Of a stretch of 64,000 bases of DNA, positions 7,191 to 58,109 are shown one piece after another. The notes beneath the pieces are model-generated. The model saw only the letters and a program-made list of their open reading frames with translations. It ran no database searches and had not been told where the DNA came from. The position numbers were made by a program, and so were the translations under genes. Within the stretch, counting starts at the first letter, position 1. Each line of letters begins with the position of its first letter. The DNA is taken from positions 9,052,001-9,116,000 of the forward strand of contig OX597842.1 in the NCBI GenBank assembly GCA_951406725.2, in the 5' to 3' direction. Source of the DNA: Octopus vulgaris (Eukaryota).

Positions 7191-7223
7191 TGTCGACCGG
7201 TTTCGTTTTTGCTATTCATGACA
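7191..7223 (-). ncRNA. Minimal hammerhead-like motif, A3-U8 core variant (partner copy 8532-8564, +)
   Basis: tgtc-ATGAATA-gc(aaaa)ac-GAA-ACCGGT-C-gaca; the partner has stem II gc(aaaa)gc but core CTGAATA; palindromic ACCGGU stem III. Confidence 0.45.
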
Positions 7224-7407
7224 TTAAAATTTATTTAAATATGTATTTTCGTAAGAAAAAATTTTTTGTCCATGTTGTGTGTGGAGTTTTATGAATGAAC
7301 GATTTTGCATATGTGGTTTATACTGTGCCTGGCTGTCCACATCAATTTTACACAATGTATATAAATATATATATATATATATCTATATATATTTATTATA
7401 TAGAAGG

Positions 7408-7458
7408 AGCTTCTACAGGACTAGAACTGTTTCATTCAAGAGAAATCTTCAGGAAGCT
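7408..7458 (-). ncRNA. Type-I hammerhead motif, inverted identical copy of 8284-8334 (sense to the Rab pre-mRNA)
   Basis: Exact reverse complement of 8284-8334. Confidence 0.7.
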
Positions 7459-8283
7459 AGTTAACAAGAATTGTATTGGCATTTATACATTTAGGCAGGT
7501 TTAAAGGGGTGTTGGTGGGGGACTTTTGGGGGTAGGCATAGCGCAAAATATCATACTTGGGGGAGTGGTCAAGGAGTCAGTGTTAAATTAGATAGAAGAA
7601 TAAATAAAAAATAAAAAAATATATAAATAAAAAAAAATATATATATAAAAAGGGGGAATAGAGTTTTAGGTAAATAAGGAGATTCTCACTTATACCTATG
7701 CACATATGTATACATATATACACACGCATACAAACATATATACATATACATACACACATACATACACACACATATATATATACATATATATATATATACA
7801 CTTACACATACATATACATATCTACACATACACATATATGTATACATACACACACTCACATGCATACATATACATATATATATATATATACACACATGTG
7901 TATGTGTAGATATGTATATGTATGTGTAAGTGTATATATATATATATATATATATATATGTGTGTGTATGTATGTGTGTATGTATATGTATATATGTTTG
8001 TATGCGTGTGTATATATGTATACATATGTGCATAGGTATAAGTGAGAATCTCCTTATTTACCTAAAACTCTATTCCCCCCTTTTTTTTATATATATATAT
8101 TTTTTTATTTTTTTATTTTTTATTTTTTTATTTTTTATTTATTCTTCTATCTAATTTAACACTGACTCCTTGACCACTCCCCAAGTATGATATTTTGCGC
8201 TATGCCTACCCCCAAAATGTCCCCCACCAACACCCCTTTAAACCTGCCTAAATGTATAAATGCCAATACAATTCTTGTTAACT

Positions 8284-8334
8284 AGCTTCCTGAAGATTTC
8301 TCTTGAATGAAACAGTTCTAGTCCTGTAGAAGCT
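8284..8334 (+). ncRNA. Type-I hammerhead ribozyme motif, C3-G8 core
   Basis: agcttc-CTGAAGA-tttc(tctt)gaat-GAA-acag(ttctagtc)ctgt-a-gaagct: 6-bp stem I, 4-bp stem III, GUA triplet; U-U at base of stem II. Confidence 0.7.
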
Positions 8335-9009
8335 CCTTCTATATAATAAATTAATTTTACTCTGCTATGTATTGAGTACCTTATTTACTGTGGTTAACCC
8401 CGAATCAACCCGGGACCTACATATATCTATATATATATATATATATATATATATAGATCATTCATTCATAAACTTTACACACAACATGGACAAAAAATTC
8501 TTAAGAAAATATGTATCTAATTAAATTTTAATGTCCTGAATAGCAAAAGCGAAACCGGTTGACCAACACAATACAAGGTATATTAAAAATTAAATGAAAA
8601 CTATGTAAAGTGTGTGCATTTCCCTTCTTTAATTTCTTATATATTACAACTCACCACGTGGGGATAATCGAAATTCTTCCCTTTTTATTACTACATATCT
8701 ATGCATATAAATTTGACATGGGCAATTCTTTCTTGTCTTGAGATTCACAGTCAAACGGCTGGGTGGAATTGCATGAAAAATGACACAGAGGTGTAGAATG
8801 ATCTGGTGGTGTTGCTGGGCTTTGTATTTTTTCATAGCTCCCATGGTTACCGAGATGATCTACTATAATAATACCCTTGTATTTATGAATGAGAAAGGAA
8901 GGGGTGATAGATAATGTCGTTCAATGATGAGTGAGTTGCTTGAAGGTGATTCTGACTCTTAAAGCTATATATATATATATATATATATATATATGTGTGT
9001 GTGTGTGAG

Positions 9010-9245
9010 GGTGAAGGCACATGGCTCAATGGTTAGAGCGTCGACCTTATGATCGTGAGGTTGTGAGTTCGATTCCCGGACCGGGCTGTGTGTTGTGTTC
9101 TTGAGCAAGACACTTTATTTCACATTCCTCCAGTTCACTCAGCTGTAGAAATGAGTTTCGACATCACTGGTGCCAAGCTGTATCAGCCCTTTTGCCTTTC
9201 CCTTGGATAACACTGGTGGCGTGGAGAGGGGAGGCCGGTATGCAT
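9010..9245 (+). mobile_element. tRNA-derived SINE, third family (relatives about 3995-4285 and 49265-49505, minus)
   Basis: tggctcaatggttagagc...gagttcgattccc head followed by cttgagcaagacac core. Confidence 0.7.
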
Positions 9246-56100: not shown

Positions 56101-56748
56101 AAGGTTTGAAAATGCAATTTTAAAGATGTTTATTCACTTGACCGGTTTCACTTTTTATAAAAAGATTGTCAAAAGTAAAATGTAAAGCTTTGTATAAATA
56201 AGCTTTGTTGTTATAAGTGCTGGTTGTCACAGAAGTTTTAAAATACATATATACATTCTTTGATAATAATAATAAGAAAATGTTAAAAACAGTTTACATG
56301 AAAGTATTTAAGAAAATATTCAACAAAAAGTATTAGGAGTTCAATACAAATCATGTTTGTTTGGTAGTATCTATATACACACAGAAGGAGATATATTTAA
56401 GAATTTACAAAGAATTTGAGACAAAAAATGCCCAAAGGACCGGTTGGTTCCTCTCAAATTCTTTGTAAACTCTTAAATAAATCTCCTTCTGTGTGTATAT
56501 ATACTACCAAACAAATATGATTTTTATTGAACTCCTAATACTTTTTGTTGAATATTTTCTTAAATACTTTCTTGTAAACTGTTTTCAACATTTTCTTATT
56601 ATTATCAAAGAATGTATATATGTATTTTAATACTTTTGTGACAACCAGTACTTGACACAACAGAGCTTATACAAAGCTTTACATTTTACTTTTGACAATC
56701 TTTTTCTGAAAAAGTGAAACCGGTCTTAAAATTGCATTTTCAAACCTT
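56101..56748. repeat. Inverted repeat, arms about 300 bp
   Basis: 56101-56421 vs 56452-56748, moderately diverged. Confidence 0.85.
56133..56179 (-). ncRNA. Minimal hammerhead-like motif, U3-A8 core variant (partial partner 56685-56725, +)
   Basis: tttactt-TTGACAA-tcttttt(at)aaaaagt-GAA-ACCGGT-C-aagtgaa: 7-bp stem I, palindromic stem III, GUC triplet, U-U at base of stem II. Confidence 0.5.
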
Positions 56749-57120
56749 CTTTCATATATATTTCCACTCATGTGGTACCTTACATCTTCTCTTTGTTACA
56801 TATATATAGAGTGGAAATATGATTTTACATTTTTCACAACTCTCTAACTCCAAAACACATATACAGTTAATCAAAGCCGGGTAGATTCGTTACTTTTTCT
56901 CTTTGCCTACATGGGATGTTGAGTATTGTTGTCTGGGAGGTTTTCTTATGGTAGAGAAATAGTTAGTTTTGACTGTTATTTCTAAATTTCGGTATGTGGT
57001 GAAGCAAATTTTTGCTGAAACCTAATTATAATTATACTCATAATTATAAAATTTATATTTATTTATATATATATATATATATATATATATATATATATAT
57101 ATATATATATATATATATAT

Positions 57121-57349
57121 ATTTCTTTACTACCCACAAGGGGCTAAACACAGAGGAGACAAACAAGGACAGACAAACGGATTAAGTCGATTACATCGAC
57201 CCCAGGGCGTAACTGGTACTTAATTTATCGACCCCGGAAGGATGAAAGGCAAAGTCGACCTCAGCGGAATTTGAACTCGGAACGTAACGGCAGACGAAAT
57301 ACGGCAATGCATTTCGCCCGGCGTGCTAACGTTTCTGCCAGCTCGCCAC
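57121..57349 (-). mobile_element. tRNA-derived SINE family B with Meta-like core (other copies about 45622-45852, 43483-43715, 26630-26855, 39622-39812, 23671-24030)
   Basis: gagttcaaattcc B-box, gtcgactttgcctttcatcctttcggggtcgat core; multiple copies. Confidence 0.82.
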
Positions 57350-57369
57350 CATATATATATATCTATACA

Positions 57370-57764
57370 CTAGCAGTATCGCCCGGCGTTGCTTGGGTTT
57401 GTAAGGGAAATAATTATATAAGCATTTTTAGAGATGTAAAGTATAATAGCCATCTCAATATGGCTAACCACAAAGGGGGAGGGGTGTTACTGTAGCTTTT
57501 TACGTTCTGAGATTTAATAATAAATTTTAGAGAGTTACTTCCCTTATATATGTCAAAAATGGATTAAAAATGGGAAAAATTGATGGTAAATTTTTTTTTA
57601 AATCGTAGACTCATCGTAGACGCGCGCTAATACCCAGACGGTCTCGATATGAATCACGACTATAAGATACCCGGTTTTGGTTAAACTGCACCGCAAAATG
57701 TGGGAGTAGTTAGGAATCTAAATCGTAGGAGACAGACACACAACCTCACTTTTATATATAAAGA
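57370..57764 (-). mobile_element. Non-autonomous Helitron
   Basis: Minus strand starts TC(tttatatataaaag), ends GC-rich hairpin plus CTAG, inserted between A and T. Confidence 0.75.
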
Positions 57765-58058
57765 TTTCCTCTATTTACATAATATTGAGGTCTCTTTCTT
57801 TCTGTTGTTATCTTACTGTTTTTACCAATATACATATATATATATATATATAAATATATATATAGTTACAGAGATGTACTTGCATAGCAAGTGACTTGAT
57901 CTGAGATCGTGTGCTGGAACGAAAACAGTTGCAGCGTTGAAGGTGTTTATAAGCCATTTAAGAAACACACAAAAACCGTTAGATTCACTTCAACATTTAA
58001 ATTTAATTTGTCAAAATATTTTCGTCGCTTTGAGACCGCGACCTGTTAGCACGATATT

Positions 58059-58109
58059 TTTGTCAGTGAACAGGTCGCGGTCTCAAAGCGACGAAAATAT
58101 TTTGGCAAA
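58059..58109 (+). ncRNA. Minimal hammerhead motif, G3-C8 variant (same family as 38968)
   Basis: Same core and stems, different loop II (ggtctcaaa), G-U wobble in stem I. Confidence 0.55.

Follow-up and report, generated by a model that had tools for sequence, protein, structure and literature searches.

The stretch of DNA examined here, referred to as the window, comprises 64,000 nucleotides of the Octopus vulgaris genome (contig OX597842.1, positions 9,052,001-9,116,000; the surveyed genome is 2.8 Gb in size and microsatellite-rich) and contains exons of a Rab26/Rab37-like gene on the minus strand, together with repeats that carry type-I hammerhead ribozyme motifs. These motifs are distributed over six repeat families with the anatomy of Penelope-like elements (PLEs). 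Judged from their sequences, they are probably minimal hammerheads at the 3' ends of PLEs and of likely non-coding derivatives, and each lineage has fixed one of four pairs (C-G, U-A, A-U or G-C) between core positions 3 and 8. The most likely reason is that the fold requires a Watson-Crick pair there, whichever it may be.

Hammerhead motifs and the pair at positions 3 and 8

A type-I descriptor in which positions 3 and 8 were left free (core N3-UGA-N7-N8-A ... GAA-A15.1), as a preliminary description of this DNA had proposed, was run on the whole window and returned seven complete hammerheads, all seven of which carry a Watson-Crick pair at these positions: C-G at 8290 (+) and 7452 (-), G-C at 38975 (+), 38926 (-) and 58066 (+), U-A at 56172 (-), and A-U at 7219 (-). 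Local dinucleotide shuffles of the window (n = 60) yielded a mean of 0.33 matches (maximum 2), with a Watson-Crick mean of 0.07. The eight cores listed in the preliminary description are all present at the positions and strands given there, 56692 being on the plus strand; the complete type-I layout ascribed to them is found in five (8290, 38975, 58066, 56172 and 7219), whereas 44543, 54889 and 56692 fail the descriptor. Complete or damaged copies absent from that list are 7452 (-), 38926 (-), 33899 (+), in which G12 has become A, and a 5'-truncated arm near 58050 (-). The motifs and their partner arms are as follows.

7191..7223, minus strand: A3-U8 minimal type-I hammerhead (core 7219), stem I UGUC/GACA, short stem II, palindrome ACCGGU, C17; 3' end of a PLE family presumed to be Neptune-type
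8532..8564, plus strand: inverted partner arm of 7219 (core 8536), with single-copy changes giving C3-U8, U17 and a weakened stem I
7408..7458, minus strand: C3-G8 hammerhead (core 7452), U10.1·U11.1, 4-bp hairpin stem III, GUA site
8284..8334, plus strand: C3-G8 hammerhead of the 8290 family, identical in sequence to 7408-7458
33892..33942, plus strand: decayed copy of the G3-C8 family (G12 to A); the whole unit spans 33877-34084
38884..38933, minus strand: G3-C8 hammerhead, left arm of a head-to-head pair, matching the descriptor
38968..39017, plus strand: G3-C8 hammerhead, 7-bp stem I, extra G after A9, 5-bp stem II, palindrome AAUAUU, U17
44541..44649, plus strand: C3-G8 hammerhead, long stem II arm (~90 nt), palindrome ACAGCUGU, 2-bp stem I
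54848..54893, minus strand: decayed C3-G8 minimal hammerhead behind a tRNA-like head (54996-55070, minus), with an inverted partner near 55150 (+)
56133..56179, minus strand: U3-A8 hammerhead, 7-bp stem I, U·U followed by a 5-bp stem II, palindrome ACCGGU, C17
56685..56725, plus strand: inverted U3-A8 partner in which a 16-nt deletion removed the 3' strand of stem I
58007..58050, minus strand: 5'-truncated inverted arm of the G-C family, core broken
58059..58109, plus strand: G3-C8 hammerhead with one G·U within stem I

The sites are arranged as head-to-head inverted pairs, and the C-G pair 7452/8290 is nested between both A-U arms (7219 and 8536); the two families are considered separate because they were matched to different loci elsewhere. 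The palindromes of stem III are ACCGGU, AAUAUU, ACAGCUGU and ACGU; in the 8290 family stem III takes the form of a hairpin instead. The unusual shape of the 44543 motif, with its long stem II arm and 2-bp stem I, is constant across 22 family rows, and the 54889 copy, mutated in stem II and in the palindrome, has an intact relative elsewhere (L235). Three of the six window families (U-A, A-U and G-C) depart from the canonical C3-G8 identity and are retained as variants, since U-A is an accepted natural variant. Rfam named no hammerhead among the best 150 of 547 window matches, those listed being microsatellite artefacts, nor among 61 matches on five loci, where the C-G examples of locus L140 were likewise missed.

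The constancy of the pair was examined with family-specific patterns free at positions 3 and 8, the pair being tallied in the first 100 listed copies of each family. The G-C family gave 6272 pattern matches (control 0), with G3-C8 in 94 of the first 100; the A-U family gave 786 (control 0), with A3-U8 in 95 and a variable N7; and the U-A family gave 659 (control 3), with U3-A8 in 96. The complementarity anticipated in the preliminary description is thus present at the level of families, and departures from the family pair are single changes, as decay after insertion predicts.

Since a Watson-Crick pair within any one family could be a matter of luck, the comparison was widened to many families. 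A first descriptor, run on 600 kb of sequence sampled at round coordinates, found 17 matches, 13 of them Watson-Crick (shuffles: about 2 each, 10/25 Watson-Crick), and a second found 14 matches, 12 of them Watson-Crick (shuffles: 1.45 each, 10/29 Watson-Crick); four decoy cores returned 0, 5, 1 and 5 matches. Non-C-G Watson-Crick cores accounted for 8/17 and 4/14 of the matches with the two descriptors, in keeping with the earlier warning that searches restricted to CUGANGA would overlook such motifs. A broader survey of 311 sources (1.83 Mb), a non-random sample in that many were reached through family queries and the G-C loci partly through G...C patterns, produced 139 distinct matches in 45 clusters, of which 41 were Watson-Crick (C-G 27, U-A 11, A-U 2, G-C 1) and 4 were of other types. 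No exception to Watson-Crick pairing occurred among the 11 multi-copy clusters (permutation p 5e-5), and after relatives had been merged the count was 38/42 against a permutation mean of 21.6, a value equalled in 0 of 200,000 permutations; kinship between families inflates these cluster counts, and the excess is nonetheless large. The results support the conclusion that the 3-8 pair is a fixed character of each family and that Watson-Crick pairs occur across families far above the expectation from base frequencies. The argument of the preliminary description that such covariation points to selected catalytic RNAs is supported for the element lineages, whose motifs are predicted to be catalytic; selection has most likely acted on the source elements and not on the intronic copies, several of which are broken.

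Several observations weigh against so simple a rule. A U3·G8 subfamily lies next to a long open reading frame (ORF) (L141, L142), one C-G lineage includes a subfamily in which U4 has become C (four loci: L291, L294, L297 and L301), and a C3·U8 family devoid of stems I or II (L125, L155, L156) accounts for 19 of the first 100 hits in one pattern search. The last of these was rejected as a type-I hammerhead, as it carries GAAACCGGTC without type-I stems I/II in that register. A sister group of the U4C subfamily (L268, L309) has an extra core base or a U3·G8 pair.

Element lineages with A3-U8 and G3-C8 cores

In the preliminary description the A-U motif was regarded as the weakest case, because its partner copy (8536, plus strand) reads C3-U8. 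The partner does read so, but the change is confined to that one copy, and the family proves to be the best anchored of all, by the constancy of its pair, by its linkage to a PLE ORF and by covariation in stem I, which differs between two subfamilies as UGUC/GACA versus UAUC/GAUA. Pieces of the PLE ORF are present in a family locus (L060), the endonuclease of which retrieves 30 loci; in 23 of these 30, picked by endonuclease similarity, the A-U motif lies in sense 419-602 nt downstream, which places it roughly 500 nt behind the ORF. The element contains a 635-aa open frame with RVT_1 (E 1.1e-6, just under the curated cut-off) and GIY-YIG (E 1.6e-6), so that the A-U family of 7219 displays the order of an endonuclease-bearing (EN+) PLE, namely reverse transcriptase (RT) followed by GIY-YIG, with a hammerhead in the terminal repeat. 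A structure search with the PLE ORF found no solved relative at E 0.1. We take the element to be Neptune-type on account of its Cys-rich linker, the tree of these proteins having been built without a reference PLE; it differs from the Poseidon element of Anolis carolinensis, for which the published account gives C-G as the natural pair and G3-C8 as an engineered one, and its motif stands behind the ORF. The A-U copies continue for about 85 nt beyond the predicted cut site.

A tree of 24 rows places the A-U clade as sister to one of the U-A clades, which has the same ACCGGU-C layout (support 91/90); another U-A clade stands next to them. This arrangement suggests a double change from U-A to A-U. 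Other endonuclease lineages carry U-A motifs (three groups, one with many 781-aa frames) or C-G motifs, and several in which no motif was seen within the DNA examined are labelled 'none seen' in the tree. The young family with many 781-aa open frames and a U3-A8 hammerhead (L247, L252 and many further places) is a candidate active element. As regards constraint, the 11 core positions showed 0/236 rare changes compared with 105/3414 in the flanks (p 0.002) in 22 copies picked by protein similarity, 6 of 28 loci having been left out for unalignable flanks.

A number of results temper this picture of the A-U lineage. The 91/90 support for the sister link is below the starred level, in a tree that is unrooted and without a clade test. 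Positions 3 and 8 differ in 5/200 cells of pattern-matched A-U copies, near the flank rate, which weakens the core-constraint result. Between the A-U subfamilies, 0/11 core and 27/139 flank positions differ, a contrast not significant alone (group C, whose core was misaligned, was excluded), and the A-U motif by itself lacks a predicted stable fold (z +1.24).

Comparable motifs were sought in other organisms through an alignment of 25 related proteins, which led to 86 PLE-related loci from metagenome and genome contigs. A similar descriptor gave 31 matches in 29 of these loci (C-G 26, U-A 2, C-A 1, A-U 1, G-C 1), about one chance match being expected in the 86 if the shuffle rate of the 600 kb transfers. 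The A-U motif (L356, a single contig) lies ~80 nt behind a frame with RT and GIY-YIG, and the G-C motif (L376, a single contig) lies just before an 810-aa PLE-type RT frame in which Pfam did not call an endonuclease; both have a stem I of 4-5 bp, an extra base after A9, a stem II of 6-7 bp and a palindrome. PLE-type ORFs were also noticed on short contigs of bacterial genome bins (L403-L408), three with hammerheads, probably as contamination from host animals.

The G-C family of the window is built on a unit of ~200-250 nt whose copies tend to begin immediately ahead of stem I and to stop at one of two 3' ends, which are separated by ~60 nt; the copies have (TA)n flanks and head-to-head arms. 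The 63 rows of its alignment comprise 33 intact arms and 30 broken inverted arms, the latter left uncounted. Its motif has a G10.1-C11.1 pair and a UUU cleavage triplet, and its energy fold (z -3.66) is better than 200/200 shuffles. The arm pair at 58 kb (~57830-58230) recurs at 99% identity with shared flanks on many contigs (L002-L030), so that a larger young composite element seems to carry it. The G3-C8 case comprises this one non-coding family here and the one contig elsewhere, and three further negatives count against it: no coding partner for the local family was found in 1.95 Mb of loci, no covariation was found in its stems, and a search for further G-C families gave no excess over the control (354 vs 415). 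G-C sites lay near a PLE ORF in 2/96 instances, both ORFs belonging to other families. Two further G-C candidate repeats were rejected, since their apparent core looks like part of stem II as judged from matches without flanks, and L239 and L240 were rejected as further families for want of stems.

It could accordingly be argued that the C-G, U-A and A-U types are real and that the G-C family only resembles a hammerhead, by chance or as a dead relic, and owes its numbers to passive amplification of a single master copy. A UUU triplet is a weak cleavage site, and there is a single family, devoid of an ORF, with no second G-C family found and with a 58066 subset that appears to ride on a larger unit. 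We nevertheless consider this improbable, given the 7-bp stem I, the extra base after A9, the G10.1-C11.1 pair, the palindrome and the favourable fold, the PLE insertion anatomy described above, and the independent G3-C8 motif of the same layout in L376; moreover, in vitro data favour G-C over the other swaps (PMC9901934, PMC11167929).

A more far-reaching reading, to which we give somewhat less than an even chance, would be that PLEs have fixed all four 3-8 pairs, that A3-U8 and G3-C8, unreported as natural, have each arisen at least twice in unrelated hosts, and that A3-U8 is under purifying selection in an autonomous lineage, having evolved from U-A by a double transversion, although such a core is rated as poor in a mutational scan of a protein-free hammerhead. 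If so, PLE hammerheads would act in a complex assisted by protein, in which the demands on the core are relaxed to the geometry of pairing alone, and searches based on CUGANGA or Rfam would miss a large part of animal hammerheads.

The RT and GIY-YIG ORF was not found upstream in the 11 longest copies of the other five window families (G-C, U-A 56172, and C-G 8290, 44543 and 54889), which are therefore filed as likely non-autonomous derivatives. In the four window families examined in this respect, the copies begin at variable points, end at a fixed 3' position and form inverted arms. This agrees with non-autonomous units mobilised by PLEs, as do 5' truncation, an inverted 5'-truncated arm and microsatellite targets; a tail is clear in the G-C family only. 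Inverted arms, 5' truncation and tails have been described for PLEs (PMC8557442, PMC11167929).

An abundant repeat combines a tRNA-like head (54996-55070, minus strand) with a PLE-type hammerhead tail (54848-54893, minus strand) and occurs in inverted pairs (L165, L235; 19 rows); it is possibly a short interspersed element moved by PLEs, the head being tRNA-like by eye only, as ARAGORN calls no tRNA gene at 54996-55070. Tandem arrays of ~360 nt with type-I hammerheads, resembling retrozymes, were observed at L140, L151 and L181, and the C-G array L140 has dispersed U-A relatives (L143, L144), a swap inside one family group.

Possible mode of action and relation to known hammerheads

In a tandem source element, two motifs on one transcript could pair through their palindromic stem III (ACCGGU, AAUAUU) and would then cut after N17 (GUC, GUA or UUU), probably slowly or with the help of the element protein, and the cut would trim the element RNA out of a longer transcript. 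Selection on source lineages would keep positions 3 and 8 Watson-Crick paired, whatever the bases. Since dispersed copies include sequence beyond the predicted cut site, they must stem from templates whose 3' motif was still uncut at the time of copying.

Parts of this scheme have precedents. Monomers of PLE minimal hammerheads show no activity and dimers show weak activity (PMC4209133), and the hammerhead of the Anolis carolinensis Poseidon element cuts only with the PLE protein, a C3G/G8C double mutant being partly rescued (Frangieh et al. 2024, PMC11167929). There are also findings that speak against it. Cleavage was dispensable for insertion in vitro and no RNA reads ended at the cut site in the Poseidon work (Frangieh et al., PMC11167929). 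In a full double-mutant scan of one type-III hammerhead, only the G-C swap restored activity; other changes in the region, among which A-U and U-A would fall, had low activity (PMC9901934). Two-copy folding of the present motifs gave palindrome pairing for A-U and did not give a hammerhead dimer for G-C or U-A.

Such findings lend some weight to a different view, which we hold to be unlikely, that the fold is selected as a structural signal for the element protein, in template recognition or at the start of reverse transcription, with little or no cutting and with the 3-8 pair only holding its shape. It would account for the continuation of inserted copies past the cut site, for anole PLE insertion in vitro without need for cleavage (PMC11167929), for the poor cutting of PLE minimal hammerheads in vitro (PMC4209133) and for the amplification of the U·G and U4C subfamilies. 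It accords less well with the recurrence of G5, A6, A9, G12-A14, U16.1 and a non-G17 in the 45 clusters, decoy cores having returned only background (these letters form part of the descriptor, so only the excess over decoys is informative), or with the cutting of the anole motif when protein is present.

Compared with the hammerheads described from PLE pseudo-long terminal repeats (pLTR) (PMC4209133), the motifs reported here are alike in their type-I form, short or palindromic stem III, extra base after A9, many families per genome, occurrence solo and in opposite-strand pairs, and U3-A8 cores; U3-A8 in PLE hammerheads was published with ~1,300 matches in Schistosoma mansoni (Cervera and de la Pena 2014, PMC4209133). 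They are unlike that set in that the portions consulted of the same paper, with term searches of its supplement, name neither A3-U8 nor G3-C8, which are here fixed in families of at least 786 and at least 6272 pattern matches, respectively. A natural compensatory change at 3-8 and a tolerated U10.1·U11.1, as in the 8290 and 56172 families, were presented by Perreault et al. 2011 (PMC3088659), where, unlike here, U3-A8 alone is named as natural in the portion consulted. Earlier work therefore covers PLE hammerheads as such, together with palindromic stem III, the additional base following A9, U10.1·U11.1 and natural U3-A8 (PMC4209133, PMC3088659), and G3-C8 is known as an engineered swap (PMC11167929, PMC9901934, PMC3884650, PMC8495972). 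The two RT start sites that give a 'tail' in Poseidon (PMC11167929) have a counterpart in the two 3' ends of the G-C family. Non-LTR (long terminal repeat) retrozymes are likewise non-coding repeats that are related to PLEs and contain type-I hammerheads (PMC7229834; bioRxiv 10.64898/2026.07.22.740005), and the ~360-nt C-G or U-A arrays L140 and L181 resemble them; unlike the head-to-tail tandem units of those retrozymes, the window copies are solo or head-to-head.

As for precedence, literal term searches, which also missed the known U3-A8 paper, found no natural A3-U8 or G3-C8 in the literature, their scope excluding figures, some supplements and the alignments of Lunse et al. Lunse, Weinberg and Breaker reportedly described dimer-cleaving PLE hammerheads with a reduced stem III. 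The portions consulted of PMC6765202, PMC6155905, PMC7229834, PMC10085705, PMC6431247 and the 2026 retrozyme preprint name no natural A-U or G-C core. It is about an even chance that natural A3-U8 and G3-C8 cores are unreported so far. No new system is defined by these motifs; their value lies in the four natural pairs and in sister lineages that differ by a double swap, which constitute ready natural constructs for the study of PLE hammerhead cutting in vivo, and in the indication that descriptor and Rfam searches under-count motifs of this kind.

The Rab26-like gene and its intronic copies

The host gene is recognised by exons with AG/GT ends, and more exons lie past the window; the best solved-structure match of the exon at 27.8 kb is Rab-26.

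53424-53314, 27874-27764, 18553-18512, 12373-12307 and 1567-1501, minus strand: exons of the Rab26/Rab37-like gene, whose span in the window is 1501..53424

The designation of the motifs as intronic in the preliminary description is correct for the sites from 7219 to 44543, which lie between these exons; the remaining four, at 54.9-58.1 kb, precede an exon that starts at an AG acceptor and are therefore presumed to be in intron 1, exon 1 not having been found by a Rab motif search in 80 kb upstream. Four sequencing runs, RNA only by guess, gave coverage limited to repeats and to the edges of the tested exon.

Five motifs (7219, 7452, 38926, 54889 and 56172) are in sense to the gene, in long introns of a gene with duplicated exons, and this arrangement might be thought to indicate that the host has kept the intronic copies to cut or regulate the Rab26-like pre-mRNA. 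We regard such a role as very improbable. Members of these families are present at hundreds to thousands of places in the genome, and the copies are on both strands, several of them broken and the palindromic types without a tandem partner. Each of the five sense motifs has an antisense arm nearby, and the predicted duplexes with this inverted arm reach -54 to -105 kcal/mol, compared with -1 to -15 kcal/mol for the local fold, so that the intronic copies are expected to be inert. The hammerhead copies in the Rab26-like introns are probably inert passengers whose position is incidental and which have no role for the host gene.

The gene itself contains two duplicated exon pairs of equal length, one encoding the P-loop (111/111 nt; 53424-53314 and 27874-27764) and the other switch II (67/67 nt; 12373-12307 and 1567-1501), which suggests alternative or mutually exclusive use with up to four isoforms. 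A comparable alternative P-loop exon exists in vertebrate RAB37. The introns also contain pieces of other retrotransposon ORFs, resembling reverse transcriptase, at 4843-5775 (plus strand), 51921-52253 and 50345-51491.

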